DNA from: a virus
Taxonomy: Duplodnaviria; Caudoviricetes
DNA: 64,000 nt
Reading direction: 5' to 3' (one strand)
IMG/VR virus record: IMGVR_UViG_3300029305_003110
Location: 32,001-96,000 of that record
This document shows positions 16,439 through 63,595 of the stretch, piece by piece. The position numbers and the translations under genes were made by a program. The notes beneath the pieces were generated by a model. That model made no database searches. It was not told where the DNA came from and worked only from the letters and a program-made list of their open reading frames with translations. Positions within the stretch are counted from its first letter, which is position 1, and every line of letters starts with the position of its first letter.

Positions 16439-16496
16439 TTTTGGTTACCTCCATTTAAAAATAATATTAATTTGTTGTTATTGATATAATATATAT

Positions 16497-17618
16497 TTAT
16501 TTATACTTATTAAATATATCGTCAAGATCTAATTCTGCAGAACCTTGAGATGTTGTATCCCTCAGCTCTTTGATTGTATCTGTTTCAGCATCATCGAGCA
16601 CAGAGCTATCTTTCATTCTAGACAATTCTTCTAATCCTTCTTCTATTCTTTGCATAATCTTTTCAAGTCTGTCATCAGGAACTGATAAACCGCTCAAGAT
16701 TAAGAATACACAATTAGGATCAGACTTCTGCCCAATAGAAACATGCTCAAACCCTTCTACCGGTTCGCCTACCAATGCTTTAATTCCGGTTAAATTTGTA
16801 TTAAATAATTTATTTAATGTATCATTTAATACTGTAATAACACCCATACGTTTAACGATCTTGTCTCTATCTAATTCAACATTAGATGAGATATTTTTAA
16901 TAACATTCACAAGCTTATCCTCAAGAGTTTCTGTATCCAGATCCTTTTCCTTTATATCGTGCAAATCGTATATCGCAAGTCTTCCAGGTGTTTCAAGAAT
17001 CTTCAGCATATCTTTCTCGTCGATGCTATTAAATGGTGTAGGATATAGATAATCGCCTCGAATTACTGCCATATGCTCAACAATCTCTCTATTAACACTA
17101 ACCATCATTTCTGATGTCGGAAGATCTGCTCTTTTATTATTATCATAACACATGTATGATATATTAGGTAAGAACTGTTTAACCTCTTTAAGATAATCTA
17201 TACTGTTCTGTTGTGCCGCAATCGATTCTCTGAGCGGCGGGTATACTTCGATTAACACAAAACGTTTTGTTGGGAACTTTCTTGTTAATATATCTGTCAT
17301 TATTGGTGCCATTCCTGAACCTGTTCCTCCACCGATAGACGATACTATAAAGATAACATCATATGCAGAAACATATTCCACGAATTTTTCTTGTCCCAAT
17401 AAGTTAGCGATTTGTTCACGTATAAAACGTTTTGCTTCATCTCTGTTCTTGCCGGCTCCTTTTTGGTCACCAACAATAAGTTTAGGAATAGATTTCACAT
17501 TTGTTAAATCTTTTTCTGAACTATTTAAAGCTAAGCCTGGTATATCTTTTTCTATTTTGGCAAGTTCAGCAATCTGATTTCCAGCGTTGCCTATTCCAAT
17601 TGTACATACTTTTAGCAT
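16497..17618 (-). CDS. phuZ: phage tubulin/FtsZ-family GTPase (PhuZ/TubZ-like)
   Basis: GIGNAGNQ, GAGK, signature GGGTGSG, DNN, T7-loop-like NSIDEKD, acidic C-terminal tail. Confidence 0.85.
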   Translation of the reverse strand: MLKVCTIGIGNAGNQIAELAKIEKDIPGLALNSSEKDLTNVKSIPKLIVGDQKGAGKNRDEAKRFIREQIANLLGQEKFVEYVSAYDVIFIVSSIGGGTGSGMAPIMTDILTRKFPTKRFVLIEVYPPLRESIAAQQNSIDYLKEVKQFLPNISYMCYDNNKRADLPTSEMMVSVNREIVEHMAVIRGDYLYPTPFNSIDEKDMLKILETPGRLAIYDLHDIKEKDLDTETLEDKLVNVIKNISSNVELDRDKIVKRMGVITVLNDTLNKLFNTNLTGIKALVGEPVEGFEHVSIGQKSDPNCVFLILSGLSVPDDRLEKIMQRIEEGLEELSRMKDSSVLDDAETDTIKELRDTTSQGSAELDLDDIFNKYK

Positions 17619-17755
17619 AGTTAAAACTCCTTTTCAATAAAATTTATATTATTATCACTAACACGAGAATAATATATATTTATTTTATGCGATAAATAAT
17701 ATATATGGGAGAAACTATATTGTGAAATTCTCCCATATATATTCTCTTTTAAAGA

Positions 17756-17935
17756 TTAAATGTTTTCAAGATTTTTAGAATTTTCCCCGATAGCACTTTC
17801 AATAAGCGCATCGATATCGTCCATTTCATCTTTTTTATTTTTTACTTTTTTAGCAGTAGGATTGTCAATGTCTAAATCTCCAAAGACTCCAACTTCTGTA
17901 AGAATGTGGAGACCTTCATCCTTTTCATTAAACAT
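17756..17935 (-). CDS. small acidic protein (59 aa)
   Basis: Hand-translated MFNEKDEGLHILTEVGVFGDLDID...; AAGGATGTG RBS; AACA-N6-TA motif upstream at 17963..17974. Confidence 0.55.
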   Translation of the reverse strand: MFNEKDEGLHILTEVGVFGDLDIDNPTAKKVKNKKDEMDDIDALIESAIGENSKNLENI

Positions 17936-17999
17936 AATATATTCACATCCTTTCTTTATTATTACATATTTGTTATCGTTTATATTACTTTATAAACAG

Positions 18000-18719
18000 T
18001 TAATCTAATGTCTTCTTTAGTACTAATCCATCAGTCACTAAATCAGTTTTTACTCCCATACCAATAAAATAAGTATCTACAGTATTTAATGTGGTCTTAT
18101 TTTCAACTTTACTGGTTAGATCATCTAATGATACATATCCTTTTTTAGCAATCTCATTATACATTTGATTTTTCATAAACATATCGTCTGCTCTAGGACC
18201 TAACAACTCACGAAGAGTATCATTTGAATCTAATGTTACTAATGCAAAGTTTTCTTGGTCAGAATCTCTTGCATTCTTATCTTTTCCTGTAACCTGACCG
18301 GTTAAAACTGAACGTGTTGATATATCTGTTGATGTAGTATTTTTCTTACTTAAAATCTGCTGCATTCGTTTGATGTTTAAATATCCAACAGGACATTCGA
18401 ATTTAGTAACGATAGGAGTGTCTTTATCTTTATTAATATATGGCATCGCGACTTTCTCAAATAATGGAATGCCTAATATTTTAGCAGCTTTTTCAATATA
18501 TTCTAATTTTACAGAGTTCTCATAATCGACAGTATCTAATATCAAATACTGGTCTTCATTCTTAAAAAACTTTTTAAAGAATGTATCGAATTGTGCGTCT
18601 GTCATTTTTGAAAACATCTTTTTGTATTTATCTGTATTTATTCCTGATGGATCTAATGCATTAAATACATCGTATATAGTATTTTCCATCTGTTTTCGTT
18701 TACTTGCTGTTAAAGCCAT
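18000..18719 (-). CDS. short RNAP beta C-terminal subunit, probably virion RNAP (phiKZ gp149-like)
   Basis: PVGYLNIKRMQQ..KKN...RSVLTGQVTG..KNARDSDQE parallels the RpoB C-terminal VGYMYMLKL.H...TQQP.GG...R.GEME. Confidence 0.7.
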   Translation of the reverse strand: MALTASKRKQMENTIYDVFNALDPSGINTDKYKKMFSKMTDAQFDTFFKKFFKNEDQYLILDTVDYENSVKLEYIEKAAKILGIPLFEKVAMPYINKDKDTPIVTKFECPVGYLNIKRMQQILSKKNTTSTDISTRSVLTGQVTGKDKNARDSDQENFALVTLDSNDTLRELLGPRADDMFMKNQMYNEIAKKGYVSLDDLTSKVENKTTLNTVDTYFIGMGVKTDLVTDGLVLKKTLD

Positions 18720-18743
18720 TTTTAATCACCTCATCTATAACAA

Positions 18744-19901
18744 TTAGTGCATATTAGCATACTGAATACTCATTACAAAAAACGTATAAATCGCTCTTCT
18801 AAAATTATTGATAGTCGCCAATCTCTGAGTCTTTTTGTATGTTCCTAGCTCATCTAACCACGAATCCAATATCTTTTTTATTTTTATAATATTCTCATCT
18901 GTTGTATTAGATCTTTTATATATATCTAAGCAATGTAATAGAAATTTATCGCTATTTATATCTTCAAGCTTATTTTTATTATCAAACATATACAAGAATA
19001 AAATAGACTCAATTATTAATTTAATATCATTAATATTTTCATTTGATACCATTTTAGTAATATAATTGCGTAATTCATTTACGCTAACTTGATTAGTTTT
19101 TGCTGCAATATTTATAATCGTTATTGGTACTCCGTCTACTATTAATTTTAATGCAACCTTATCAACCATACGAGATATTGCATGAGTCGATGAGTCGGCT
19201 TCATGATACGTTTCCTCATCATTACTTTCAAATTCAACATTAAGATATTGACCTTTTTTATGTGCATCGTAATATGCATTAGAAATCTTTTTCATAAAGC
19301 TATTTACACGAGTTTTTAATGCTAATATAAACTGCACAGCGTCAGAATCATCACCCTTTATTAATCCTTCTTTATGTAAGTCATATGCTCCATAGTATGT
19401 TTCATCTAATGCTTTATATAAATTTCCGGTTTGTTTAATTTTATATTTATTTGATAAATTATTAATTGTGTGATTCATTGTATTCTCATTAACACCGTAT
19501 TTAAAATATTTATGATATACAGATGGATACAATGCAATTCCTAAATAGAATATACAATTTCGTGTCATATGTTCATTCTTTTTAATAGTAAAAAAACGTA
19601 TAATCATAGTCATTAAGAAATAAAATGGATTTGCGGTAACCTGACCTGTTGCTTTAATATCTTTCGATTTATTTTTTATTGTTCTGGCTATTTGCGGTGT
19701 AACACCAACTAAATCATATACAATATCCATTTCTCTATCAGTAAATAAAATCATATGTGTAGGTCCAATAGCGGAAAGATATTCGCTATTTTTATCTATA
19801 AATCTACCTATAGTTGATTCTAATTTTTTAACATTCATTGTGTTAGAAAAACATTTTTCAACATATGGGTAGAGTTCATTAACTAAAATTTTCTCTGCCA
19901 T
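18744..19901 (-). CDS. hypothetical protein co-transcribed with putative vRNAP subunit
   Basis: 385 aa ORF; AACA-N6-TA motif upstream at 19929..19940. Confidence 0.75.
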   Translation of the reverse strand: MAEKILVNELYPYVEKCFSNTMNVKKLESTIGRFIDKNSEYLSAIGPTHMILFTDREMDIVYDLVGVTPQIARTIKNKSKDIKATGQVTANPFYFLMTMIIRFFTIKKNEHMTRNCIFYLGIALYPSVYHKYFKYGVNENTMNHTINNLSNKYKIKQTGNLYKALDETYYGAYDLHKEGLIKGDDSDAVQFILALKTRVNSFMKKISNAYYDAHKKGQYLNVEFESNDEETYHEADSSTHAISRMVDKVALKLIVDGVPITIINIAAKTNQVSVNELRNYITKMVSNENINDIKLIIESILFLYMFDNKNKLEDINSDKFLLHCLDIYKRSNTTDENIIKIKKILDSWLDELGTYKKTQRLATINNFRRAIYTFFVMSIQYANMH

Positions 19902-20019
19902 ATAATCACCGACCTATTTTCAAATTATTATTAAAATGTTTACACGATTAAAAATGGTCAAAATATATAATCAATATTTTTTTTGAACGATATATTAATG
20001 AATTATATTAATAAAAGGA

Positions 20020-21527: not shown

Positions 21528-24500
21528 TCAATTCTCTTTTATATCTATAATAACTTCACCTTTTCTAACAGGTAATAATTTCTTACCTTTAGATAATCTT
21601 GGTAGTTCTGGAACTTCTTCCATTTTAATTTCCTCAATACTTGATGTTAAATATGCTTTAAAGATTTCATTACCTTTTACAGTTTTTATTAACTGCACAC
21701 CATCATCCGATTCTACTGAAATAATCTTTAATGGTTTAGCATTTCGTTCCATTGTATTGAAATTATTTAATGTGCATAATTTGCCAAAACCTTTTTTAGA
21801 CAATGCGAATAAATATTGGTCTTTATCACCAATAACATCCATCCCTAATACACTTTCTCCTTCACCAAGAGGAAGTGCTCGAATTCCAACAGTCATACGA
21901 CTCGTCTCTTTAATTTCAGATGAATTAAATCGTACGCCATAACCCGTATTAGTATATATAACGATATCTTTATCACCAGCTATTAATTTAACAGATACAA
22001 GTTTATCATCATCCTTGACTATCAATCCGAGTAGTTCGTTTTTGATATTGGTGTATGCACTTGCTAAAGTTTTCTTAATAATACCATTAGAGGTTATCAT
22101 CAAATAATATACTGGAACTTTTACTTTATCAAGCTCTTCAATAGTCGGTTTAGATTTTATGGTTGTAATCTTACCATTTATTGTGCAATAATCTGATAAT
22201 TTATTGCCCTCGCTATTTAACACACAACCGTGTATCGAATGTACCGGTAGTTTAGAAATCTTTCCGCTCTCATCAAATATTAATAAATCGGATGTATTCT
22301 TACATTCGATGATTTCTCTCGGATAATCACCTTTATTAATAAACCCAACATTTTTAATATTATCTGGTAACTTCTTAACAAAACCATTCGATGTGAATAC
22401 CATGACATGATCGGTATCACGAACCTTAACTTCATTATCAACATTTATGATTTGACTTCTGCGTTCTTCACCAAATAATTCAATTCCTTCTTTTAACTCA
22501 TCTTTAATAATTTTATCAATTTTCTTTGCTGAGCGGACTATTTTGTCAATTTTTATAACTTCAGCATCAATCTCTTCTTTTTCTTTAACATATCGTCTAT
22601 ATGCTTCTTTTGAGAACGCTGTTAATGTCATATTGGCAATTGTGGTCGCTTGTAATGAAGATATACCGTACATCTTCATTAACCCTTCAATAATTTCTTT
22701 CTTAGATTCAGACTTCTTAATTAAACCTATAGTCTTCTCAGCATTATCTTTATTGAGGATAAATAACATAATTTCCAATATATGCTGACGTTCTCTAGCT
22801 TTTGTCAATTTATGGTTATATAAACGACGTTTTGTTTCCCTACGAAAATCAATCCAAGTTAATAATATACTTTTTATAGTATAATCGTTGTCTTCATAGT
22901 CTTCTATCAATTTAAATACTACAGGGAATGTCTTCTCCATCTGAGTCTTTGAATAAATCATATGCATTATTGAATATGGATCCACTTCTTTTTTAAGAAT
23001 AATTTCATAATGCATAAATCCAATATCAGAATGGTCGATAAAGTCTTTCATCATATTATTTTTTCCATCATTTAATAATGAAAATACTTGCGCCTTTATC
23101 TTATTCCAAAATGCCTGTAATGGTGTAGATTTAATGTGAAGAGAATTTCTATCTTCATCAATCTCAATAACACCCCTCATCTTAAAACGACCTGTGCCAA
23201 CTTTTGATATTTCCGGAAATTGACCTTGGTCGACTATATAAGCACCGGTCGGTGAGTCCGGGAATAATACAATATCATCAATGTTTGGATTGTCTATTAA
23301 TTCTATTGTCGTTTCCAAAACTTCTTTTAAGTTATACGTACAAATCGATGTTGAGATACCATCATTTATCTTCCATATGAGTCGTTAATTCATATACGTT
23401 CTCTTATGAACTGCTATATATTTCTATATAGATGAGACTATATCTTCATCTTATAAATAAGATGCCCTCCATTTCCACTCACTTGAGTGTACGTCTTTCG
23501 ACTAGTCGTTGAACCTTTTTATATATTTATTTATAATGTCTTTATGTCTATCTTGTTTTCTTATATGTGATAATAATGAATTTAATTTAATAATGTTATA
23601 ATCCGCATATTGATATTTGGATATAATATAATCCCGTATTTCAACATTTGTTAATTTTTCAATATACATCTTTTCACATATTTCATGTATTAATTCGGAC
23701 CGATATACGCAGTTTGGGTGTTCGTCGCCCTTGCGTGGATTTAAAAAACCACCATCCCGAGCTTCTATTTGATTATATTGATTATCACACCACTCTAAAT
23801 TCTCATAATAATTATTCAAAGAATCATTATCGAGGTGATGAACAAAATCAAATTTTTCAGGATTTGTATTTGGTACAAATTCCCACGCCACTAATCGATG
23901 AATACTAACATCGACATATTGTCTCTGTTTATCAATCACACTATCTTTTGCTAATACAACTTGAAGGTATGCCCGTTCGCGCATAGTATTAAACGAAATT
24001 CGCGATTTGCTTGCCGGTGATAATAATTTATTAGTAATTAAACTATATACACGCCCATGGTTGCTAATCATATAACTATTCTTTTTAACCGATGGGTAAG
24101 TTATAGTTTTCCATATTTCAGGTTTTTTAATAAAAATATACATCATCGTCAACACCTCCTCTTAAAATATTATAGACTTTAATAAATATATAAACTTGGC
24201 TGCTGATTGTCTTCAACTTTACTTGTTAAGAGTTTCCAGCAATTAAAAGGGTTTGCTACATATATCACTATATGCAGGGACTTATATTTCAAATCCAATT
24301 CCAAAAGTATTATTTATTAATACATTTGGATATCGTGAAGGTAAGAATTCTGGTTCTTTTTTATTACCAAGATAATTCAATTTCATATCAACGATATCTT
24401 CACTAAATTCTTCAAAGAAACATTTATAAGCATAATATGATAATCTTGCCTCAATATAACGACCGCTCGCTGCAGGATCTCCAGATGGGCTACCAAAGTT

Positions 24501-28791: not shown

Positions 28792-28967
28792 ATTAATTCC
28801 CCTTTCTATTTAATTCATATAAATGTTTTATCCATAATATACTTTCACATCCCACTATATACAGGGTTTTATTTATGGAACATATAAAATTTTGACAAAA
28901 AAATATACGATGGAATATTAAATCCCATCGTATATTGTATGATTACATGTGCACATGCAACCATGTT

Positions 28968-29456: not shown

Positions 29457-29554
29457 AGATTTAAACCTCCTATAAAAAATTAATTATAATCAACAAAATG
29501 ATTTTACTCATTTGTTGCTAGGTGAATAATATATAATTTAAATATTCTTTAATA

Positions 29555-31294: not shown

Positions 31295-31318
31295 TATTTC
31301 TTTGTTAACAATTAAATA
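31295..31318. promoter_or_regulatory. back-to-back AACA-N6-TA promoters centred on TGTTAACA
   Basis: + strand AACA-ATTAAA-TA at 31307..31318; - strand AACA-AAGAAA-TA at 31295..31306; lies between divergent genes. Confidence 0.6.
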
Positions 31319-31368
31319 ATAATATAATTTATAATATATTGGTTAATTAATATATCAGGAGTGATGAT

Positions 31369-36944: not shown

Positions 36945-37033
36945 GTCGCTCCTCTCCTTTAATATCTGTTAACTTCAAAATAATTATATAATATTTTATT
37001 ACTATATTAACAAAATATTAGAACTAATTATAT

Positions 37034-37110
37034 TGGGCTGTAGCCAAGTGGGTAAGGCACCAGATTTTGATTCTGGCATTTCGCAGGTTCGAGTCCTACC
37101 AGCCCAGCCA
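37034..37110 (+). tRNA. trnQ: tRNA-Gln(TTG)
   Basis: Acceptor stem TGGGCTG/CAGCCCA, anticodon arm CCAGA-TTTTGAT-TCTGG, GGTTCGAG T-loop, encoded CCA. Confidence 0.95.
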
Positions 37111-37150
37111 TTTATTTTTTATTATATGAACACAATTATAATTATATTAT

Positions 37151-37379: not shown

Positions 37380-37391
37380 AACAATATATTA
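37380..37391 (+). promoter_or_regulatory. AACA-N6-TA late-type promoter (representative copy)
   Basis: AACA-ATATAT-TA 33 nt before ATG 37424; the same motif precedes most + strand transcription units. Confidence 0.65.
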
Positions 37392-41613: not shown

Positions 41614-41749
41614 TTTTTTTATTAATGGTTAGTAATGGATTTTACCATTACTAACCGTTTTTAATGCTTTTTTATATAGATATTGGGCTCTTCAAACATT
41701 CTAATAATAAAATTTTAATAAGTAAAATTATGAAAGGAAGTGTTTATTT

Positions 41750-42406: not shown

Positions 42407-42425
42407 TATGGAGGTGTAATATATT

Positions 42426-45757: not shown

Positions 45758-45818
45758 CGTCACTGCAGTAATAAAATATCAATAATATCATAATTTTTTA
45801 TTTTAATATGGAAAAGGA

Positions 45819-50483: not shown

Positions 50484-50513
50484 TGTATATTATTTTTAAG
50501 GAGAGGATACTAG

Positions 50514-50831: not shown

Positions 50832-50927
50832 TTATGTAAAATATCTTCACATGAGGAATGGATATTGATTTATCCATTCCTCACTTTTATTTATCAACAT
50901 TAAAGTAATATATAAAATACTATAAAG

Positions 50928-51527: not shown

Positions 51528-51624
51528 AATAGAATGCAATAGTTTACTTAGTATTACTATTGCATTCTATATTTTTATCGAATTTAACATTAATATAATT
51601 ACAAAATAAAAGGAGGTTTATAAA

Positions 51625-54600: not shown

Positions 54601-54680
54601 GTTAAGTGCATAATTAGGGTTAAACATATTAATAACTAATATATTTATACTTAAAATAAATAAAAAGAAGGTGATATTCA

Positions 54681-55370: not shown

Positions 55371-56025
55371 GGGGTGTTTAGAATTGGCAACAGTAACGCT
55401 ATTAAAAGATTTAAAAAATAGTAATAAAAGTTTATTGGAAATTTTAAATTCATTTATTTTCGGTAATAAAAAAATCGAATTTCATGATAAAAATAAAATA
55501 TATAAAAAGGGTGATTTGATATTATTAGATACCGATGATGGGGTATTAATTAAACAAGCAAAATATGATAGTATGGATGCAGAATATATCGACGAACAAT
55601 GGACTAGTTCTATTATAATGGATTGGTATATAAATACTGGTAATAATTTTGCAATAATATCAAAAAATGAACCAATAGATCGACCCGGAAATGTTTTATG
55701 GTATATTCCAATATCATATCATGATGATATTAATATACCTGAAGTAAATGATGATGATTATACGCACTTGACAACTTTATTTACTCCTAGAGCATTTGCT
55801 ACCGGAGAGTATGAAGAAGGTGAAACTCCAGCGCAATTGGATGAAGGATTATTCTTTGATATTGAATCGTCTGAAATTATTGAAAATTATACATCGGATG
55901 ATATGTATGAAGAACATCCTATAACACCATTAACAGATAACAATCAAGTATCAATTAGTGATGATCCTCCAACTGACAATGAAACAAAACTTTGGGGAGA
56001 TACTGACCTTACTGATAATATATAA
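55363..56025 (+). CDS. putative structural protein, acidic
   Basis: 220 aa; ISKNEP...LWY and ISDDPP...LW fibre-type motifs. Confidence 0.55.
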   Translation: MIRGCLELATVTLLKDLKNSNKSLLEILNSFIFGNKKIEFHDKNKIYKKGDLILLDTDDGVLIKQAKYDSMDAEYIDEQWTSSIIMDWYINTGNNFAIISKNEPIDRPGNVLWYIPISYHDDINIPEVNDDDYTHLTTLFTPRAFATGEYEEGETPAQLDEGLFFDIESSEIIENYTSDDMYEEHPITPLTDNNQVSISDDPPTDNETKLWGDTDLTDNI

Positions 56026-56113
56026 CAATTTATCCTAATACATGTATTATTTCGCATGTATTAGGATATTTTTCAACATTTAGTTAATAAATTAAAAAAG
56101 GAGTGAATTTAAT

Positions 56114-57031
56114 ATGGCAGATATTATAGCTGATCTTTTGATGAAGAATAAAAATTCTGATGGCAGTTATACGATTTTACATCCTATAACAAAAACCAGT
56201 AATGTTAAGACATCATCAGAGATCCAGGTAATGTTACCCGAATCAATGGGTTCATTTAAAGATGGTGATATAATTCAACCAGAAACATCTATCGACGATA
56301 TTATTAAAAAACTTGTACAGGTTCAAATATTACCGACATATACAGAACCAACAGTAACTATTGCTGGAACTGTATCAACTACAGGTAGTTATGAAGCTGG
56401 TACAGAATTAACACCAACATTAACTGCAACATTCACACAGAATGATGCTGGTGCATTAACAAAATTACAGATTTTAAAAAATGGCACAGAAATAGCTAGT
56501 GATACATCTTCTCCATTTGCATATGATGATACATTTACAATTGGTGTTGAGACTGTTAAGTATAAAGCTATTGCAAATTATTCAGATGGTGCTGTTAAAG
56601 ATGATAACTTTGGTACTCCATATCCAGATACCGCAATTAAAGCAGGTAGTAAAACAACATCTGAAATATCTTATACCGGATATAGAACATATTTTTCTAC
56701 ACATGATACTGGTAGCGTTGCTGCTACATCATCAGCAGATGTTCGTGGCTTTGTAACAAAAGGAACTAAAGCTGCTGCTAATGGCGTATCATTTACAATT
56801 TCAGCTAAGGCTGGAGATACTCGAGTATCTTTCGCATACCCATCAACACTTAGAGAAGTTTCTTCTGTTAAGTATGTTGAGGCTGGTAATGATGAATCTA
56901 AATCACTCTTCACAGAGACAAAAGTTAATGTTGAAGGTGCAAATGGCTTTACAGCAACAGAATATAGAGTATATACAATGATAGGTGCTCAGCCTTTCTT
57001 AGCTGATATGACCTTCAGTGTAACAATATAA
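56114..57031 (+). CDS. Ig-like virion accessory protein
   Basis: Thr-rich; YTEPTVTI...YEAGT; RVSFAYP...VEGANG...YRVY; promoter motif at 56075..56086. Confidence 0.6.
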   Translation: MADIIADLLMKNKNSDGSYTILHPITKTSNVKTSSEIQVMLPESMGSFKDGDIIQPETSIDDIIKKLVQVQILPTYTEPTVTIAGTVSTTGSYEAGTELTPTLTATFTQNDAGALTKLQILKNGTEIASDTSSPFAYDDTFTIGVETVKYKAIANYSDGAVKDDNFGTPYPDTAIKAGSKTTSEISYTGYRTYFSTHDTGSVAATSSADVRGFVTKGTKAAANGVSFTISAKAGDTRVSFAYPSTLREVSSVKYVEAGNDESKSLFTETKVNVEGANGFTATEYRVYTMIGAQPFLADMTFSVTI

Positions 57032-57050
57032 GGAAGGGAGGAACTAAACT

Positions 57051-59669
57051 ATGGCTAATTTACCTTATATTACAGAATTTCCAAATAAAATATTTAGTGC
57101 ATTAAAAATGTATTCTAGGGTTGGAGCATTTCCTCTCGATCCTACAAGCGTAGTTAATACAAAAGCTGACCTTGAAAGCTATATTAACGAAACAGGTTCT
57201 TATGCATATCCTGGTCAGGTAGTATCTGTTGCCAATGGTACTACTGCGGCTGAAAATGGCGTTAAAGACTATTCATTATATGTAATCCGTTCTGATAGAA
57301 GCGTGCAGAAAGTTGGCGGAACAATCGCATTCGAAACACTTACTGCTGCTGAAACATGGGTTGCTGAAAATACTGTAGCGGCTCCTGCCGGTGAAATTAT
57401 TTCTGTTCTCGTTGATGGTGTATATGAATTATACATGATTCAGACAGACAGAAGTCTTAAGAGAGCTAGTTTCGATGCGGCTGATATTCCGGACATTTCT
57501 TGGGATTCATTAACAGGAAAACCAACATCAAGCACAACAGACATCGATAGTTCTGTAACATTCTCAAAGAAATTTACAGAAGGCGATAGACTTTCTTACA
57601 ATGACAAAGAATTAGCATATGTAGAAGATATCACTTGGGCTAATCTCCAGGATATTCCTACAGAATTTGCTCCTTCTGCACATACACATGGTAATGATGA
57701 TATTACAGATTTAGATGCATCTAAGATTACATCAGGTACTATCAGTATCGATAGGTTGCCTCATGGTGCTCTTGAAAGATGCGTTGTTGTTGCTGATGAT
57801 GATGCACGTTTTGCATTAACATCCGATAACGTTCAACTTGGCGACACTATTAAAGTTACAGCTACAGGTAAGATGTACTTTATTGTTAATGCTGAGAAAC
57901 TTGATAGTGAAGAGGGTTATGAAGTATATACTGCTGGTTCTGCTACAAGCGTTCCGTGGAGTGGTGTTACAGGTACGCCAACAACATTAGCTGGTTATGG
58001 AATTACAGATGCTGTTGCTGTTACTGACCTCGTTGAAACTGCTAACGTTAATAACGCTGGTAAAGTTCTTAAAGTAAATGCTGAAGGTAAGCTTGATGCA
58101 TCTATCACAGGCGATGCAGCTACTGTTGGTGGTAAAGCCGCTAGTGCGTTTGCAGAAGCTGTTCATGATCATACAACTGCTGAAGTTGAAGGATTAGATA
58201 CAGAACTTGCTAACATCAAAGCTGGTACATCTATCACAGCTCTTGATGCTTCTAAACTTACAGGCACAATCAATAAGAGCGTATTACCTGCCGAGGCATT
58301 AAATAATCTTGTTAAAGTATCTTCTGATGCTGAACGTCTTGTATTAACATCTGCACAGGTGCAGAATGGCGATACAGTTATTGTAGAAGCTACTGGAAAC
58401 ATGTACTTAGTTGTAGATGATTCCCAGCTTACAACAGAAGCTGGATACCAGATCTATACAGGTTCTGCTACAAGTGTTCCGTGGACTGGAATAACAGGTA
58501 CACCAACAACATTAGCTGGTTATGGTATTACCGATGCTGTTAAATCTGATGAAGTTGTAGAAACTGCTACTGCTAATAAGATTCTTAAACTCAATGCAGA
58601 TGCTAAACTTCCTGCATCTATCACAGGTGATGCTGCTACTGTTGGTGGTAAAGCTGCTGATGCATTCGCAGAAGCTACACATAGCCATGGTGATGCAGAT
58701 ATTACTGATGTCGCTTGGACAAAACTGACAGGTACACCTACAACACTAGAAGGTTATGGTATCACTGATGCTGTTAAATCTGATGAAGTTGTAAATACTG
58801 CTACTGCTGATAAGATTCTTAAACTCAACAGCGAAGCTAAATTTGATGCTGACATCACTGGTGATGCTGATACTGTTGATGGTAAACATGCTTCCGACTT
58901 TGCAGAAGCTGTTCACGGTCACACTATCACTGAAGTTGAAGGCTTAGATACAGAACTTGCTAACATTAAAAACGGTACAGCAATCACAGCTCTTGATGCT
59001 TCTGTTATCACATCAGGTACTATCAGTATCGATAGATTACCTCATGGTGCTCTTGAAAGATGCGTTGTTGTTGCTGATGATGATGCACGTTTAGCTTTAA
59101 CTACTGATTCAGTTCAGACTGGTGATACAGTTAAGGTTACATCTACAGGAAAAATGTACTTCGTTACAGATGATTCCAAACTTAACAGTGAAGATGGATA
59201 CATTGTATATACTGCTGGTTCTGCTACAAGCGTTCCATGGAGCGGTGTTACAGATACACCTACAACCTTAGCTGGTTATGGAATCACAGATGCAATGTCT
59301 GCCGATGCTGACGTTGTTTACAACACTGATGTTGTTGACGTTGCTAATGCTGAAAATGCTGGCAAAGTTATTAAAGTAAATGCTGACGGAAAACTCGATG
59401 CATCTATCACAGGTGCCGCTACAAGCGTTCCGTGGACTGGTATAGAAGGTCGTCCTGAAGCAACTGCTGAAGAAATCGATACCGCTGTTGCCGATGCAAA
59501 ACACGAAAACAGAGAAGTTCTCGATAATCTTGCTGAAGTCGATGGTTCTCTCACTCACAATGACAAAGCTGTTGCATATGTTGAAGATATCAGCAAATTT
59601 ATGCAGGTATCAGCAACAGAACCTACAGATTTACCTGTTGGTGGTTTCTGGTTTGAGGTTATTGAATAA
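57051..59669 (+). CDS. repeat-rich fibre protein
   Basis: Multiple SVPWSGVTGTPTTLAGYGITDA, LDASKITSGTISIDRLP and HxH repeats typical of phage fibres. Confidence 0.75.
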   Translation: MANLPYITEFPNKIFSALKMYSRVGAFPLDPTSVVNTKADLESYINETGSYAYPGQVVSVANGTTAAENGVKDYSLYVIRSDRSVQKVGGTIAFETLTAAETWVAENTVAAPAGEIISVLVDGVYELYMIQTDRSLKRASFDAADIPDISWDSLTGKPTSSTTDIDSSVTFSKKFTEGDRLSYNDKELAYVEDITWANLQDIPTEFAPSAHTHGNDDITDLDASKITSGTISIDRLPHGALERCVVVADDDARFALTSDNVQLGDTIKVTATGKMYFIVNAEKLDSEEGYEVYTAGSATSVPWSGVTGTPTTLAGYGITDAVAVTDLVETANVNNAGKVLKVNAEGKLDASITGDAATVGGKAASAFAEAVHDHTTAEVEGLDTELANIKAGTSITALDASKLTGTINKSVLPAEALNNLVKVSSDAERLVLTSAQVQNGDTVIVEATGNMYLVVDDSQLTTEAGYQIYTGSATSVPWTGITGTPTTLAGYGITDAVKSDEVVETATANKILKLNADAKLPASITGDAATVGGKAADAFAEATHSHGDADITDVAWTKLTGTPTTLEGYGITDAVKSDEVVNTATADKILKLNSEAKFDADITGDADTVDGKHASDFAEAVHGHTITEVEGLDTELANIKNGTAITALDASVITSGTISIDRLPHGALERCVVVADDDARLALTTDSVQTGDTVKVTSTGKMYFVTDDSKLNSEDGYIVYTAGSATSVPWSGVTDTPTTLAGYGITDAMSADADVVYNTDVVDVANAENAGKVIKVNADGKLDASITGAATSVPWTGIEGRPEATAEEIDTAVADAKHENREVLDNLAEVDGSLTHNDKAVAYVEDISKFMQVSATEPTDLPVGGFWFEVIE

Positions 59670-59733: not shown

Positions 59734-61857
59734 TTATTTCTTTGTAGACATCATTTTCGGTATGCTCTTAAGTTTATATTTCTCGATAGCTTCTTTCATA
59801 AATAATTTATGAATATCGACGGATTTATCAGAAATAACTTTAGCATACTTACCTTTCTTTGTCATTTCAAAACTATTAAATGAATCCTTATAATACATTG
59901 ATAAAATCTTCATAAGTTTCGATTTTGCTTCAGTATCCTTAACAGGTATTAATAATTCGAATCTCTTATCGAGGTTTCTTGTCAACAAATCTGCACTAGA
60001 AATATATATTTCCGGATTTTTATTATTATGAAAATAATATATTCTGCTATGCTCTAAAAATCTTCCAACTATACTGCGTATTTTAATATTGCTATTTATT
60101 GGCTTGATGGAACATATACCTCGACAGAATATCATTATCTTAACACCTTTCTCAGATGCCTCATATATCTTATCTATCATTTTCTTATCTGAAATAGAAT
60201 TCATTTTGAGAGTAACTATTGCTGTCTTTCCATTTTTAGCATTCTTAATTTCATTATCAATAGATTCGATAATAGTTTTTCTAAGATTATATGGTGAAAA
60301 GTATAATTTATTTATCTTGGTAGTCGGTTCAGAAAAGCCAGATAACATATTGAACACTGTAATCAGATCAATACCTACTTTGTAGTTCGATGTGAAGTAA
60401 GATATGTCAGTATACAGCTTAGCAGTCTTATCATTATAGTTACCGGTCCCAACATGAGAATAAATCTTCAATCCTTTCTTTGATTTTCTAACAACTATTA
60501 TAAATTTACAATGTGTCTTTAACTCTTCATCACCATATATTAAATTACATCCAGACATTTTAAGCTTTTCTATAAGAGAAATATTTCTTTCCTCATCAAA
60601 TCTGGCTTTTAATTCTAATATAACCGCAACCTGTTTTCCATTACGAGCAGCCTGACACAATGCCTCGACAATTGGAGAATCTATTGAAGAAACTCTATAC
60701 AGAGTTTGTTTTATAGATATAACATCCGGGTCATTTGATGCGTGCTCAAGGAACTTAATTATTGGGTCGTATGATTCATATGGATGATGTAATAGTATAT
60801 CTCCACCATCAATAGCAGTGAACATATCGTGTTCACCTATAAGCTCTGATGGATACTGCGGAGAGAACTTATCATACTTTGTCCCGTCTTTATTAGAAGT
60901 AATCTCTTGAAGAGATTTAAAATCGATAGGCTCATCGCTAACATAAACATGCTTCTTATTTAAATCAAAAATCTTTGTTAATAACTTTACCATAGATTTA
61001 GATAAATTACTTGTAACATCCATATATATTGGTCTACTGTATCGTCTTTCCAATAATGTGCTTTTCATTCTATCTGTAATATAAACGTCTTTATCATGAT
61101 TTACTTCTATATCTGCTTCACGAAGAATTTTAATTGTTCCATAGTCCACAATCTTTTTATTATAATATATTCTATCCAAAAATGAATATATTATTTCTTC
61201 TAATAAAACATATTTTTTACGATTATTAGATGTAGGAACCTCGTAAATCCTTACCAATGAGTTGTCTAATGGTATAAATGACACAACCTGATTGTTTGTA
61301 TTCTGTGTATCTTCTAATGAAACAACAATATTTAATTGTTTTGACATAAGATCGGGAAACTCTTTGGTTGTATCGAAGTTAATTGGTGTTAACAAAGGAA
61401 ATATTTTATTATTAAATATATTAGTAATATAACCTTTTTCGCTTTTACTCAAATCATCAAATGTGCATATTTCTATTCCTTGCTTTTTAAGCTTATCTAA
61501 TAGTTTATTATAACATTTGATTTGCAAATCTCTAAACTTCTGTATTGATTTTAACAAAGTCTGATACTCTACTTCAGGACTCATTCCTGATAGTTCTTTT
61601 TCACGAGTCCCTTTAATTAATCTGTTAATGACTGTTGAAAATCTTACCATAATGAATTCGTCTAAATTGGATGTTGTTATAGCTAAAAAGTTTAACCGTT
61701 CTAACAATGGGATATCTTTTCTCATTGTCTGAAACAGTACTCTTTTGTTAAACTCAATCCAACTTAGTTCACGATTAATATATTTCGGATTATTGAAATA
61801 ATTATCATGAATCGAATCCTCAAACTTTTCTAAGATATTACGTTCGTCCTTATTCAT
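59734..61857 (-). CDS. ppk1: polyphosphate kinase 1
   Basis: NRELSWIEFNKRVL, SNLDEFIMVR, DILLHHPYESY, IKQTLYR, ELKARFDE, KTHCK (catalytic His), GTGNYN, SIVGRFLEHSRIY, SSAD. Confidence 0.95.
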   Translation of the reverse strand: MNKDERNILEKFEDSIHDNYFNNPKYINRELSWIEFNKRVLFQTMRKDIPLLERLNFLAITTSNLDEFIMVRFSTVINRLIKGTREKELSGMSPEVEYQTLLKSIQKFRDLQIKCYNKLLDKLKKQGIEICTFDDLSKSEKGYITNIFNNKIFPLLTPINFDTTKEFPDLMSKQLNIVVSLEDTQNTNNQVVSFIPLDNSLVRIYEVPTSNNRKKYVLLEEIIYSFLDRIYYNKKIVDYGTIKILREADIEVNHDKDVYITDRMKSTLLERRYSRPIYMDVTSNLSKSMVKLLTKIFDLNKKHVYVSDEPIDFKSLQEITSNKDGTKYDKFSPQYPSELIGEHDMFTAIDGGDILLHHPYESYDPIIKFLEHASNDPDVISIKQTLYRVSSIDSPIVEALCQAARNGKQVAVILELKARFDEERNISLIEKLKMSGCNLIYGDEELKTHCKFIIVVRKSKKGLKIYSHVGTGNYNDKTAKLYTDISYFTSNYKVGIDLITVFNMLSGFSEPTTKINKLYFSPYNLRKTIIESIDNEIKNAKNGKTAIVTLKMNSISDKKMIDKIYEASEKGVKIMIFCRGICSIKPINSNIKIRSIVGRFLEHSRIYYFHNNKNPEIYISSADLLTRNLDKRFELLIPVKDTEAKSKLMKILSMYYKDSFNSFEMTKKGKYAKVISDKSVDIHKLFMKEAIEKYKLKSIPKMMSTKK

Positions 61858-61917
61858 TTTTTTTTCTCTCCTTATTAATATTAAAATATCATTAAGATTT
61901 ATTTTTTGTATACACTT

Positions 61918-61927
61918 ATAATATATA
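61918..61927 (-). promoter_or_regulatory. TATATATTAT early-type promoter motif (representative copy)
   Basis: Same 10-mer found 25-85 nt upstream of several minus-strand genes. Confidence 0.5.
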
Positions 61928-61988
61928 TTCGATATTAATACTGAAAAATATGAGAAGAATATATTTTGAATATATTCTTCTCATATCA

Positions 61989-63242
61989 TTATTTTTCTTC
62001 ATCTAAATCAAATAAGTCTTTAATTAATGAATTGATGTAAAAAGTATTAACAAATATTATCAGCCTATACGTTGATGATGGGTTTATTTTTTTAGTTATT
62101 AGTTTAAATTCATCAAAATCTAATTCATAATCAATATGTGGTTTAAGAGTTTGATTATCTTTCATAACAGTATATTGCATAAATGTCGACAATGGTATTC
62201 CATGCTCTTTATGATATTCAATACACCGCATCATACTATTGTTAAATAGTTGTTTTATATCCATAATATCCGGATCAGCATGTGCATCTACCATATATAT
62301 TGGTGAAGTATATATGTTCCAACCATCAGCAATACGTTCTTTATATAAGTTATTTATTGTAAATAACGGTATTAATCTATTTGGGTCTCCATCGTGCATA
62401 CCTATAACAAAGTCGTCAATCCATTCGGGATGCTCTGCAAAATAATAGTATAAGCCAGATGCATTAAATTCTGTAGATACAGTAAAAGATATAGTATGTG
62501 TATCTGCGATCATGCCCTTTTTATTTCCTTCATCTATCGCAAGACCTGATATAGTGGTATCAATATTTACAGGATAAAATCTAAAAAATTCATCATTTCC
62601 AGTCGAGTTTTTCATCTTATAGGAGATTGGATACATAGAAACACTATTAACATAGTCTAAAAATGGTTTAATAGAACCATTTTCGTCATACATTTCCATT
62701 CCTATATCTTTTGCCATTAATTCAAACAATTCCCTTGGAATAAAACTCTCCAAACATGTTTTCAAAAAAAATGGCTTCTCTTGTCTTACTCTATTTTTAA
62801 AGAAATGAGCTTGATTAAGTTGTTCCATTTGGGTTTCTGTAACAATAGTAATATCAAAGAACATCTTCAATCTATTTAATAGAAATTTTATTTGATTTCC
62901 TTTAGATTTATCATTTATAAATGGTTGTAAATTAGTAAAGCTTGTATCTATATAGTTATCCATCATTCGAGTTGTCAACAGTGTATTATATAAAAATGTA
63001 TCAGAATCATTCAATTCAACCCTAGGTCGTATGATTAACATAGGTTTAGATTTTCTTAGGAATTCTTTATTGGTATTCTGAAATATATTAAATTGTCTAT
63101 ATGCTATAGTTGAACTAATATGCACTGTTTTAAAATAATTTTCAGGAAATAATCCTTTTATATATTCAGTTATAAAACAGGTAATATTTCCATATGTATG
63201 TGCTAATGATGTTTGAGCCATACAATAACCCATTACAATCAC
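61989..63242 (-). CDS. putative virion structural protein of AR9-like jumbo phages
   Basis: 417 aa ORF; AACA-N6-TA at 63256..63267 upstream; family assignment is recollection, not verified. Confidence 0.55.
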   Translation of the reverse strand: MIVMGYCMAQTSLAHTYGNITCFITEYIKGLFPENYFKTVHISSTIAYRQFNIFQNTNKEFLRKSKPMLIIRPRVELNDSDTFLYNTLLTTRMMDNYIDTSFTNLQPFINDKSKGNQIKFLLNRLKMFFDITIVTETQMEQLNQAHFFKNRVRQEKPFFLKTCLESFIPRELFELMAKDIGMEMYDENGSIKPFLDYVNSVSMYPISYKMKNSTGNDEFFRFYPVNIDTTISGLAIDEGNKKGMIADTHTISFTVSTEFNASGLYYYFAEHPEWIDDFVIGMHDGDPNRLIPLFTINNLYKERIADGWNIYTSPIYMVDAHADPDIMDIKQLFNNSMMRCIEYHKEHGIPLSTFMQYTVMKDNQTLKPHIDYELDFDEFKLITKKINPSSTYRLIIFVNTFYINSLIKDLFDLDEEK

Positions 63243-63456
63243 TTCCTCTCATATTTATTTAAATGTTTTTAGATATATTATCAACATAAAATTAAAAAAA
63301 AAGATACCTGCTGGTTACAGATATCTTTTTAAAGTTATATTGTTACATCTACGGTAATAATATGTAAAACAATCATTCAAAATCACGGATTTATCATATT
63401 AGATAAATCCGTAAAATATATTTTTAAATATTATATGATGGTATTAACATAATTAT

Positions 63457-63595
63457 AATTATCAACGTTAATTACTCTTTAAGATATATACATTTATAGT
63501 CACCTCCTTATAGAATATAAATATATACCGGTATCTTAAAGAGTAATTTATTTGCGGAATCTAGAAATTAATCTAGATTCCGCATTATATTTTTT
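63457..63595 (+). ncRNA. candidate small RNA: long hairpin with anti-Shine-Dalgarno loop plus terminator
   Basis: AACA-N6-TA at 63446..63457; stem 63470-63498/63516-63548; loop GTCACCTCCTTATAGAA; terminator 63553..63584 plus T-run. Confidence 0.4.

Follow-up and report, generated by a model that had tools for sequence, protein, structure and literature searches.

Short intergenic elements matching AACA-N6-TA recur throughout a 64,000-nucleotide stretch of a giant phage genome (henceforth the window), which raises two linked questions: are they promoters of the phage's own non-virion RNA polymerase (nvRNAP), and are they read in thymine DNA or, as in phage AR9, in deoxyuridine (dU) DNA? In AR9/PBS1, gp226 together with beta-N gp105 reads the late promoter, 5'-AACA-(6N)-TA/G(+1), in its template strand. 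We found the phage to be distantly related to AR9 and to have its own AR9-like RNA polymerases: 67 of its 221 predicted proteins match AR9, including homologues of all five nvRNAP subunits (gp270, gp154, gp105, gp089 and gp226) and all four virion RNAP subunits (gp078, gp145, gp189 and gp264). The gp226 homologue is 26% identical to AR9 gp226 over 484 aa, and a profile built from its clade aligns nearly end to end with PDB 7S01 chain A (E = 8e-39). The ends of the contig join to form a circle, so no gene is missing through loss at the ends. Taking both questions together, we consider it reasonably likely that the motif is an nvRNAP promoter and that the DNA contains thymine.

Positional enrichment of AACA-N6-TA

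The initial annotation had listed intergenic copies of the motif, nearly all facing genes. This description held: 11 of 11 plus-strand and 6 of 6 minus-strand copies are exact matches at the listed positions, all of them and a TG variant are intergenic by our own gene call (the window carries no annotation), and each points at the next gene or tRNA, apart from those at 63283(+) and 63446(+). Two further intergenic copies had been missed: one at 16468-16479(-), overlapping the copy at 16465, and one at 17660-17671(+), not directed at any gene. Counted over the entire window, the loose motif was not enriched (81 matches vs. 87.7 ± 8.2 expected, with 83 of 100 shuffles reaching 81); enrichment was confined to the regions upstream of genes, where it was strand- and spacing-specific. 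The signal is one of position.

Genome-wide, 61 of 209 copies fall in intergenic DNA, which makes up 9% of the genome (3.19 per kb vs. 0.78 per kb in coding DNA), and 50 of these 61 face the adjacent gene. Specifically, upstream regions (up to 150 nt before genes) contain 46 forward copies, compared with 10.7 ± 3.2 (maximum 20) in 500 dinucleotide-preserving shuffles and with 5–25 copies for each spacer of 0–5 or 7–12 nt. The window's upstream regions alone hold 14 copies (2.8 ± 1.7 expected; maximum 9 in 200 shuffles), and the remainder of the 209.8-kb genome, which serves as an independent replicate, holds 32 (8.1 ± 2.7 expected). Placement is narrow: the distance from the end of the motif to the start codon is 19–51 nt for 45 of the 46 copies and 22–32 nt for 28 of them. 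Although the search left the base following TA (+2) free, 42 of the 46 copies have A there, giving the consensus AACA-N6-TAA.

The same pattern was found in uncultivated relatives. Among 31 non-redundant loci, some with up to 43% G+C, we counted 119 copies at N6 vs. 24–54 at other spacers; 103 of the 119 lie 15–60 nt from a start codon, and 85 of those 103 have A at +2. In 17 of the 31 relatives the motif precedes the GroEL start by 24–40 nt within flanks that cannot be aligned. AR9 itself, run through the same pipeline, gave 65 copies at N6 (4–33 at other spacers), with the same AACA, 6-nt spacer, TA and start-codon distance and a matching copy number. The two phages differ at +2 (in AR9, A 20, T 31, G 13 and C 1; n = 65) and in the G start, which the AR9 consensus allows and which here shows no enrichment (TG class: 2 vs. 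0.8 expected in the window, 3 vs. 2.2 outside), contrary to its inclusion in the initial annotation.

Two motifs and two RNA polymerases

An AR9-like early promoter, TATATATTAT-N5-TA, is also present, and no 9-mer is more over-represented upstream of genes than ATATATTAT (31 regions vs. 2.3 expected). The window contains 15 gene-facing early-type TATATTAT cores. This motif has its core and transcription start site (TSS) spacing in common with AR9's annotated early promoters: the AR9 virion RNAP promoter is AAATATATATTAT-(6N)-G(+1), the TATATATTAT core is common to both, a conserved T-purine follows 6–7 nt downstream, and in both phages these promoters precede nvRNAP subunit genes, that of gp226 included. 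The differences are a downstream TA here (T 27/39, A 27/39) vs. TG in AR9 (G 31/34), and a weaker upstream AAA.

When motif-bearing units were classed manually by function, all 17 headed by structural or virion RNAP genes carried AACA only, while all five nvRNAP genes or operons carried the early motif only (for example, the gp089-like operon begins at 12800-13129, preceded by the core at 13212-13219, and its gp089-like gene is split by a group I intron with an Rfam match at 9957-10343). Among the 13 units for nvRNAP or replication, nine had the early motif only, two had both and two had AACA only. A few genes have both promoter types in tandem; such tandems, and copies without a gene, are also described for AR9 in the text of PMC5312081 that we drew on. 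Neither exact motif was found at 53 of 125 candidate transcription-unit starts, including that of the gp145-like gene, the fourth virion RNAP gene.

By analogy with AR9, we regard AACA-N6-TA as very probably an nvRNAP promoter, and the earlier AR9-type reading is well supported by the shared spacing and placement and by the full AR9-like nvRNAP with its gp226 homologue. The element (here AACA-N6-TAA) would be read by the phage's five-subunit nvRNAP, with the gp226-like subunit recognising, at -11 to -8, the complement of AACA on the template strand and transcription beginning at the A of TA, 20–50 nt before the start codon. The programme would run as in AR9: injected virion RNAP would read the TATATATTAT-N5-TA promoters, nvRNAP would be made early from those in front of all five of its genes or operons, and it would then read the AACA promoters of virion RNAP, capsid, tail and lysis-type genes and of two tRNAs. 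Motif statistics, gene content, homologies and the split by gene function are direct observations, from which we infer the pairing of polymerase with motif, the start site and the timing. Two details of the initial annotation need narrowing. Some non-structural genes (helicases, GroEL, ThyX) also carry the motif, so that its term "late" should be taken as a label borrowed from AR9. Its statement that each tRNA has a copy holds for both tRNA genes of the window (n = 2) but not in relatives, where the sole tRNA-bearing locus has an exact copy at 0 of 2 tRNAs.

A second point of comparison is phiKZ, whose nvRNAP (with a gp68 subunit) uses a late promoter with TATG at the TSS in thymine DNA. According to the portions of PMC7598289 and PMC9209446 used here, it resembles our phage in its five-subunit RNAP, its gp226/gp68-family specificity subunit and (if our reading is right) its thymine DNA; it differs in having no -10-like AACA element, whereas here the polymerase proteins and both motifs are AR9-type. 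No chimallin-like protein was recognised among the predicted proteins in general scans without a dedicated model, which is not evidence of absence.

Thymine or deoxyuridine in the template

The initial annotation had left two options, namely uracil-substituted DNA or an nvRNAP that reads the same element with thymine. The evidence favours the second, and we think it probable that the phage DNA contains thymine rather than dU, because ThyX and a dTMP-kinase-like protein are encoded, no dCTP-deaminase-family gene and no homologue of the AR9 uracil-DNA glycosylase inhibitor (UGI) or deoxyribonucleotidase was found, and the gp226 valine is replaced. Unlike AR9, this clade, the phage included, has a thymidylate synthase but no dU-pathway deaminase, and the polymerase would therefore probably read 3'-TTGT-5' where AR9 requires 3'-UUGU-5'.

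The proposed check for thymidylate synthase returned ThyX (PF02511, 128 bits; 87.0 bits against TIGR02170, whose cut-off is 87.9), itself encoded behind an AACA promoter. Within the clade, ThyX was found in 6 of 11 genomes and ThyA in 4 of the 5 without it, i.e., one or the other in 10 of 11; some genomes have a canonical single-domain ThyX (122–206 bits), and the dUTPase check was positive in 2 of 7 genomes tested. The dU controls AR9, BpSp and phiR1-37 gave 0/3 for each of ThyX, ThyA and dUTPase, and 3/3 for a dCMP/dCTP-deaminase family gene, of which this complete genome has none. Searches with tblastn for AR9 UGI, deaminase, deoxyribonucleotidase and ribonucleotide reductase gave no match at E <= 1. 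The Pfam deoxyribonucleotidase model missed AR9's own enzyme, and UGI- and dTMPase-type proteins evolve quickly, so their absence is weak evidence.

Inspection of the gp226 uracil pocket, as had been suggested, placed T218 at the position of AR9 V206, a residue reported in the consulted text of PMC9209446 as absolutely conserved in dU phages. Among 27 non-redundant relatives this position is V in 5, P in 6, I in 5, L in 3, A in 3, T in 2 and Q, G and S in one each; judged from these alignments, the U-selecting valine is not conserved and is variable across the clade. Other changes from AR9 are Y210 to Q and beta-N K375 to N, while gp226 I207 and W208 and beta-N R363 are conserved. The same text describes an engineered V206G AR9 holoenzyme that accepts thymine at -10; it was made in the laboratory from the enzyme of a uracil-DNA phage, and U at -11 remains indispensable to it. 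In the natural clade, by contrast, V, I, L, P, A, T, Q, G and S all occur at this site, and neighbouring contact residues vary as well. Glycine occurs naturally at the relative loci L041 and L043 (which count as one once redundancy is removed), with 6–7 AACA-N6-TA copies per 21 kb. Discrimination at -11 in AR9 is attributed in PMC9209446 to DNA backbone conformation and not to a side chain, so that reading thymine would call for a different grip of the enzyme on the DNA.

The alternative is that the DNA contains dU as in AR9/PBS1, with an nvRNAP needing uracil at -11 and -10, unrelated dU-pathway enzymes, and a ThyX-like protein that is inactive or otherwise employed. We consider this unlikely, though several observations point towards it. 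Cultured phages with the same capsid and RNAP set (AR9/PBS1, BpSp, LPJP1, phiR1-37, S6-like) all have known or presumed dU DNA in the account of PMC7598289, and the sections of PMC12697855 used here describe dU pathways of independent origin whose dT-nucleotide hydrolases are unrelated. T218 is valine-shaped and might still exclude a 5-methyl group, I207, W208 and R363 are retained, and the phage ThyX is a tandem fusion whose C-terminal half alone keeps RHR and whose N-terminal half alone keeps the S-x-RY part, which leaves its predicted activity uncertain. Against this, all three characterised dU pathways in the same sections of PMC12697855 use a dCMP-deaminase-family Dcd, the family present in every dU control and absent here; thymidylate synthase is kept across nearly the whole clade, with ThyX and ThyA replacing each other; dUTPase in two relatives would destroy dUTP; in one relative (G003) a deaminase gene lies ~0.8 kb from ThyX, a dTMP-synthesis arrangement; and the V206 position varies freely, G and A included.

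Other readings and sites in the window

We give little credence to the possibility that the motif is real but has another role, as a site for host RNAP with a factor or for virion RNAP, or as an RNA-processing or 5'-UTR signal. Start sites were assigned by analogy with AR9, and the fixed distance to ribosome-binding sites is what a 5'-UTR element would show; however, the motif also precedes tRNA genes, which have no such site, Pfam scans, which covered 214 of the 221 predicted proteins, revealed no sigma-factor domain, virion RNAP has its own distinct motif before nvRNAP genes, and sequence, spacing and placement are those of the AR9 promoter as defined by experiment (94 of 118 non-early AR9 TSSs in the part of PMC5312081 consulted). 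That the matches are a mere by-product of composition, as the window-wide count and the 75% A+T of intergenic DNA might suggest, is refuted by the shuffles of the same upstream regions (whole genome and window/rest split), by the strand-, position- and 6-nt-specific enrichment with its conserved +2 A, and by recurrence in G+C-richer relatives, and has a negligible probability.

Table 1. Predicted promoter elements and associated genes in the window (distances are to the start of the gene faced).
Feature	Position	Strand	Context
Late-type promoter	16465..16476	-	Before 293-aa gene 15557-16438; overlapping copy 16468-16479
Early-type core	16486-16493	-	Tandem early plus late arrangement with 16465 copy
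Late-type promoter	17963..17974	-	27 nt before 59-aa gene 17756-17935
Late-type promoter	19929..19940	-	27 nt before gene 18744-19901 (homologue of AR9 gp052 and phiR1-37 structural protein g205)
Virion RNAP subunit gene (AR9 gp078-like)	18000..18719	-	After 18744-19901, downstream of 19929 promoter
nvRNAP beta C-terminal-half gene (AR9 gp089-like)	8479..11479	-	Exons 10304-11479 and 8479-9465
TG variant AACATTTATATG	28816..28827	-	6 nt downstream of early-type TATATTAT core 28834-28841
Late-type promoter	29505..29516	-	48 nt before 162-aa gene 28968-29456; tandem with early-type core 29526-29533 just upstream
Late-type promoter	31295..31306	-	36 nt before Dda-like helicase gene 30080-31258
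Two early-type cores	31319-31326, 31331-31338	-	Upstream of 31295 copy
Divergent late-type promoter	31307..31318	+	50 nt before gene 31369-31725; then baseplate-wedge-like gene 31756-32184
Late-type promoter	37009..37020	+	Predicted +1 (A at 37020) 14 nt before tRNA-Gln (37034-37110)
Late-type promoter	37129..37140	+	Predicted +1 (A at 37140) 11 nt before tRNA-Leu (37151-37237)
Late-type promoter	37380..37391	+	32 nt before virion structural protein gene 37424-38371 (AR9 gp281-like)
Late-type promoter	41695..41706	+	43 nt before gene 41750-42406, first of tail-fibre block 41750-50483
Late-type promoter	50896..50907	+	35 nt before gene 50943-51527
Late-type promoter	51586..51597	+	27 nt before 991-aa gene 51625-54600
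Late-type promoter	54623..54634	+	46 nt before gene 54681-55370
Late-type promoter	56075..56086	+	27 nt before gene 56114-57031; then 872-aa fibre-like gene 57051-59669
Early-type TATATTAT core	61918..61925	-	Faces polyphosphate kinase 59734-61857
Late-type promoter	63256..63267	-	22 nt before 414-aa gene 61989-63233 (AR9 gp251-like)
AACA-N6-TA copy	63283..63294	+	No gene downstream; overlaps exact early-type TATATTAT-N5-TA at 63274-63288(+)
AACA-N6-TA copy	63446..63457	+	No protein gene downstream; predicted +1 = 63457
Other early-type cores (starts)	2981, 6491, 7597, 8386, 13212, 16486, 17669, 17696, 24922, 28834, 29526, 31319, 31331	-	
Other early-type core (start)	50486	+	

Three sites in Table 1 need comment. 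The TG variant at 28816 is not supported as a promoter: its class is not enriched, and transcription of the 47-aa gene and the gyrB operon is better explained by the early-type core at 28834-28841, which more likely serves as their promoter. The copy at 63283(+) is ambiguous because of its overlap with an exact early-type element. Finally, from the predicted start at 63457 a strongly folded stretch of ~140 nt leads to a plus-strand hairpin and T-run at 63553-63594, which makes the transcript from the 63446(+) copy a candidate small RNA.

Position of the AACA-N6-TA motif

The initial annotation had described a series of AACA-N6-TA elements, resembling AR9 late promoters, in front of late transcription units, and we found the 17 exact copies, as well as the TG variant, at the positions it gave. 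The number of matches in the window as a whole was at the level of chance (81 vs 87.7 ± 8.2 expected), because the pattern specifies only six bases in DNA that is 70% A+T; as there was no window-wide enrichment, the signal is positional and not global. Specifically, of the 209 copies in the genome, 61 fell in intergenic DNA, which totals 19.1 kb; of these 61, 50 faced the adjacent gene. The enrichment over shuffled DNA implied by the promoter proposal was borne out: we found 46 forward copies at most 150 nt upstream of genes vs 10.7 ± 3.2 expected (500 dinucleotide-preserving shuffles, genome-wide), and the excess appeared independently in the window (14 vs 2.8 ± 1.7) and in the rest of the genome (32 vs 8.1 ± 2.7; 200 shuffles for this split). 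In the same upstream regions genome-wide, the six-nucleotide spacer accounted for 46 copies, compared with 5–25 for each spacer of 0–5 or 7–12 nt. The distance from the end of the copy to the start codon was 19–51 nt in 45 of the 46 cases (mode 27–28 nt), with a ribosome-binding site in between, and the base following TA, which was not required by the search, was A in 42 of 46. We therefore adopted AACA-N6-TAA as a working consensus; upstream of genes, this longer form was found 13 times vs 1.0 expected in the window and 29 times vs 3.1 outside it. The AACA-N6-TG class, to which the variant belongs, did not stand up as a promoter class, as it was not enriched either in the window (2 vs 0.8) or outside it (3 vs 2.2).

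Applying the same gene caller and counts to AR9 as a control gave 65 copies with the N6 spacer vs 4–33 at other spacers, most of them at distances of 17–52 nt, meaning that the pipeline recovers a promoter class defined by experiment. For relatives, we used ~21-kb loci from IMG/VR around the gene encoding gp226 (in AR9, the sigma-like specificity subunit of the non-virion RNA polymerase, RNAP). There were 47 such loci (31 without near-duplicates), spanning gp226 identities from 75% down to 27% and G+C contents of 24–43%. Across the 31 loci the N6 spacer was found in 119 copies vs 24–54 at other spacers; 103 of the 119 lay 15–60 nt from a start codon, and position +2 was A in 85 of these 103. 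Upstream of the GroEL orthologue, AACA-N6-TA was found 24–40 nt before the start in 17 of the 31 relatives, within intergenic sequence that was otherwise unalignable; the 14 without it were mostly the most distant ones. The AACA-N6-TA observation is thus confirmed and its interpretation as an AR9-type late promoter is supported. Our analyses likewise support its assignment to a known promoter type, namely the late promoter of the AR9 non-virion RNAP, with transcription predicted to start at the A of TA and the timing likewise predicted. A search for RNA runs with 50000–58000 as the query gave none.

The motif had also been said to precede most late units. This held in the plus-strand structural block (37.4–59.7 kb), where 6 of 7 candidate unit starts carried it; genome-wide it was present at 44 of 125 candidate unit starts (7 of which also had the early motif described below), and 53 of the 125 had neither exact motif. 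The claim that each tRNA has its own copy was correct for this genome, whose only two tRNA genes both carry one, with the predicted +1 being 14 nt upstream of mature tRNA-Gln and 11 nt upstream of mature tRNA-Leu, and it did not extend to relatives. There, tRNAs were found in a single locus (L017), once with AACA and a 7-nt spacer and once with no copy; as these tRNAs lack exact copies, the claim rests on the two genes of this genome. The single tRNA gene of AR9 is also described as late (PMC5312081).

Two plus-strand copies were orphans. The first, at 63283(+), overlaps an exact early-type element at 63274–63288. Directly downstream of the second, at 63446(+), lies a region of ~140 nt with strong predicted folding (−44.3 kcal/mol, z = −8.3), a candidate small RNA (see the feature table) in which CCUCCU occupies the apical loop of a long hairpin, followed by a terminator hairpin and a U-run. 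Some AR9 late promoters are described as driving antisense or non-coding transcripts as well (PMC5312081). Read on the opposite strand, 63457–63600 has a 4-codon ORF behind a strong ribosome-binding site.

Two polymerases and two promoter motifs

The window covers bases 32001–96000 of a single contig of 209,768 bp (29.6% G+C), the last 101 nt of which (genome 209668–209768) repeat positions 39–139. Because the ends join through this overlap and an uninterrupted 343-aa primase ORF then runs across the junction, the assembly is a closed circle, despite a CheckV completeness estimate of 85%. The first 38 nt of the contig fall outside the circle, perhaps as an artefact of assembly. Our own ORF-based gene call gave 221 genes covering 91% of the genome. 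Since 67 of the 221 proteins matched AR9 (local tblastn, E ≤ 1e-5) but its major capsid protein and that of AR9/PBS1 shared only 26% identity (Listeria phage LPJP1 and Yersinia phage phiR1-37 gave the next matches), the phage is, judging by its proteins, a distant uncultured relative of the AR9 group without a close cultured relative. A 1076-aa gene had no megablast match in the phage collection.

Using tblastn, we found homologues of every AR9 RNAP subunit in the genome. These comprise beta'N (gp270), beta'C (gp154), beta-N (gp105), beta-C (gp089) and the sigma-like gp226 of the non-virion RNAP, and gp078 (18000–18719), gp145, gp189 and gp264 of the virion RNAP. The five non-virion-RNAP genes lie at genome 5747–7747, 16848–18230, 101773–103206 and 206986–208464 and, for the intron-split one, at 8479–11479 in the window. 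The gp226 homologue (492 aa) is 26% identical to AR9 gp226 over 484 residues (pairwise E = 2e-21) and lies in the AR9-like order GroEL-gp227-gp226-primase; a profile of 15 clade members matched the AR9 gp226 chain (PDB 7S01_A) with E = 8e-39. No sigma-factor domain was detected among the 214 proteins (of 221) that were scanned with Pfam. Among 8000 candidates scored, the gp226 homologue had 219 metagenomic relatives at E ≤ 0.001, many on contigs of 200–260 kb and one labelled as a Herbinix MAG. The S-layer-homology domains of the endolysin and the Spo0A C-terminal domain of another protein point to a spore-forming Firmicute as the probable host, and the Spo0A-domain protein may interfere with host sporulation control. 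Together with the Herbinix label of one relative, these features make spore-forming Clostridia the candidate hosts.

An unbiased k-mer count upstream of genes identified a second, early motif. The most over-represented 9-mer was ATATATTAT (31 regions vs 2.3 expected from base composition), and alignment of 39 gene-facing early sites gave the consensus TATATATTAT-N5-TA; in the window, TATATTAT-N5-TA occurred in 12 copies vs 3.7 ± 2.1 expected. The 34 early promoters annotated in AR9 yield AAATATATATTAT-N5-TG (the consensus and start site agree with PMC5312081), so that the core and spacing are alike while the start base is A here (predicted) and G in AR9. The motif matches the AR9 virion-RNAP type in having a conserved AT-rich core of ~10 nt, a predicted start 6–7 nt downstream and a position before early genes. 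The TG variant of the late motif at 28816 has an early core directly upstream, and it is this core that heads the gyrB operon; a TATATTAT-N5-TA element is found inside the beta-C intron at 10057–10071(−).

When mapped gene by gene, the early core was found at 37 genes, AACA-N6-TA at 45 and both at 7. We assigned gene function classes by hand from homology searches. The early motif, without the AACA motif, was present at 5 of 5 non-virion-RNAP genes or operons. Units with a structural or virion-RNAP gene at their head carried the AACA motif alone wherever they had a motif (17 of 17); among them are capsid, sheath, portal, tape measure, tail fibres and three virion-RNAP genes, whereas the fourth virion-RNAP gene had neither exact motif. 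The early motif also precedes ligase, gyrA, gyrB and the tubulin gene, AACA copies also precede non-structural genes (SF2 helicase, GroEL and ThyX), and tandem promoters, early upstream of late, were found at a Dda-like helicase and one DNA polymerase gene. In the AR9 programme as described in PMC5312081 and PMC7598289, an injected virion RNAP gives rise to the non-virion RNAP, which in turn gives rise to virion components; genes that have both promoters are active for the whole infection. On our functional assignments, the split of the two motifs by gene function is that of AR9.

Thymine or uracil in the template

To our knowledge, no multisubunit RNAP other than the AR9 non-virion enzyme reads a −10-like element on the template strand; the explanation offered has been that dependence on uracil keeps this enzyme away from host DNA. 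The initial annotation had left two readings for this phage: either its DNA is uracil-substituted or its polymerase reads the same element with thymine. Gene content bears on this choice. The genome encodes a dTMP-kinase-like protein and a ThyX (PF02511, 128 bits; TIGR02170, 87.0 bits vs a cut-off of 87.9) with its own AACA promoter upstream. A caveat is the tandem structure of this ThyX, whose C-terminal half has RHR but not the S-x-RY part (S-x4-S-x-RY) and whose N-terminal half has the latter but not RHR; three relatives (G001, G003 and G007) have similar open frames of ~445–465 aa with two Thy1 matches. Among clade genomes, ThyX was found in 6 of 11 and ThyA in 4 of the 5 without ThyX, so that 10 of 11 have retained a thymidylate synthase and the two types substitute for each other; dUTPase was found in 2 of the 7 genomes tested. 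In three phages with deoxyuridine (dU) DNA used as controls (AR9, BpSp and phiR1-37), ThyX, ThyA and dUTPase were each found in 0 of 3.

In dU phages, a dCTP deaminase (Dcd) of the dCMP-deaminase family supplies dUTP, as described in PMC12697855. A search for this family (PF00383), among the checks proposed by the initial annotation, came back empty for this genome (six frames and Pfam scans), whereas the family was present in AR9, BpSp and phiR1-37. It was also detected in 2 of 7 clade genomes (G003 and G004), each with a thymidylate synthase, which in G003 is a ThyX ~0.8 kb away. In deaminase and thymidylate synthase alike, this phage departs from the dU-DNA jumbo-phage type (PBS1/AR9, phiR1-37). 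The AR9 uracil-DNA glycosylase inhibitor UGI (gp104), deaminase, deoxyribonucleotidase (gp151) and ribonucleotide reductase had no tblastn match at E ≤ 1, although small inhibitors of unrelated folds would escape such a search for gp104. For a dTMP phosphatase or dTTP pyrophosphatase, Pfam scans found none of PF06941, PF12917 and PF01725, but the PF06941 model misses even AR9's own enzyme and is uninformative here, as nucleotidases readily escape detection. Judging by these genes, it is quite likely that the phage has thymine DNA, or at least DNA that is not uracil-substituted.

The structural work on AR9 describes a non-virion RNAP that needs deoxyuridine opposite the two As, with a −10 base pocket formed by gp226 V206 and I207 together with beta-N R363 and K375; the V206G substitution admits thymine, and discrimination at −11 acts via the DNA backbone (PMC9209446). 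Previously, gp226 was known from twelve GenBank homologues, all from phages with proven or presumed uracil DNA, in which V206 is reported to be absolutely conserved (PMC9209446). We inspected the contact residues, namely V206, I207 and Y210 of the gp226 2.1bis helix and R363 and K375 of beta-N, and found that I207 and R363 are kept, as is W208, while V206 is replaced by T (T218), Y210 by Q and K375 by N. In the 27 non-redundant relatives whose helix aligned well, the residue matching V206 was V (5), P (6), I (5), L (3), A (3), T (2), Q (1), G (1) and S (1). The pocket alone cannot settle uracil vs thymine, because threonine has the shape of valine. The residue at this position showed no link with the presence of ThyX or ThyA, V being found both in G008 (a relative with ThyX) and in G009 (one with ThyA).

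That an AR9 transcription system occurs together with thymidylate synthesis and with a “uracil gate” that varies speaks for a thymine-reading variant in nature. We lean towards the view that a clade of ~200–260-kb uncultivated phages, probably infecting spore-forming Firmicutes, runs the AR9 two-polymerase programme and AACA-N6-TA(A) promoters on thymine DNA. What is new is the setting: the AR9 system is combined with thymidylate synthesis both in this complete genome and in a large clade of uncultivated phages. In the limited body of literature searched we found no description of an AR9-type promoter in a thymine-DNA phage. The known homologues are now joined by this complete genome and by dozens of metagenomic relatives with the same promoter words and polymerases, which carry thymidylate synthases and vary at the uracil-gating residue. 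Should the thymine reading be true, the promoter code would predate the switch to uracil DNA, and AR9 gp226 would have acquired its strict need for uracil (V206) later, as a specialisation. Thymine-reading sigma-like subunits would then already exist in nature, with nine different “uracil gate” residues, and a means other than uracil would be needed to keep the polymerase off host DNA, candidates being the extra A at +2 or a tubulin-organised compartment. If, alternatively, the DNA contains uracil after all, this would be a dU phage without any known dU-pathway gene yet with ThyX, which would be equally instructive. The results provide a ready promoter map with which to annotate a whole clade of uncultivated giant phages, and natural variants for asking what sets uracil/thymine discrimination.

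Split genes and auxiliary genes

Several genes were found in pieces (see the feature table). AR9 gyrA is likewise annotated in pieces, three of them joined. Of the two DnaB pieces, 33723–35003 matches AR9 DnaB at 3628–4851 and 32234–32671 matches it at 4807–5118. The AR9 terminase is annotated as five joined pieces, and more introns are therefore likely in this phage.

Features of the phage genome (positions in the window unless marked “genome”)
Feature	Position	Strand	Details
Three paralogous beta-solenoid/hexapeptide-repeat proteins (phrog_7964, phrog_5070)	2137–2937, 5722–6465, 6556–7575	−	Own early-type promoter each
Spo0A C-terminal DNA-binding domain protein	4101–4727	−	E = 4e-10
beta-C gene (gp089-like)	8479–11479	−	Exons 10304–11479 and 8479–9465; group I intron between
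Group I intron	9466–10303	−	Rfam match 9957–10343; no ORF called inside
Tubulin/FtsZ-family (PhuZ-like) gene	16497–17618	−	Two early-type cores upstream
gyrA in two pieces	24282–24842, 21528–23318	−	HNH/NUMOD4 homing-endonuclease ORF 23502–24146 between
DnaB-like helicase, apparently split	33723–35003, 32234–32671	−	HNH/NUMOD4 endonuclease ORF 32876–33616 between
Polyphosphate kinase 1, full length	59734–61857	−	All four PPK domains; early-type promoter
Candidate small RNA	63457–63600	+	AACA promoter at 63446; ends in hairpin and T-run at 63553–63594
ThyX, tandem fusion of two Thy1 domains	genome 119678–121000	−	Signature motif degenerate in complementary fashion
Large terminase as two adjacent ORFs (319 and 731 aa)	genome 183536–186709		Both match the same terminase family

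The PhuZ-like gene had no tblastn match in AR9. A search of 28 unannotated or key proteins against NCBIfam returned only ThyX, dTMP kinase and the FtsZ-like protein, with nothing chimallin-like among the matches; it included no model dedicated to chimallin and is therefore silent on a phage nucleus. Polyphosphate kinase 1 is an unusual auxiliary gene for a phage.
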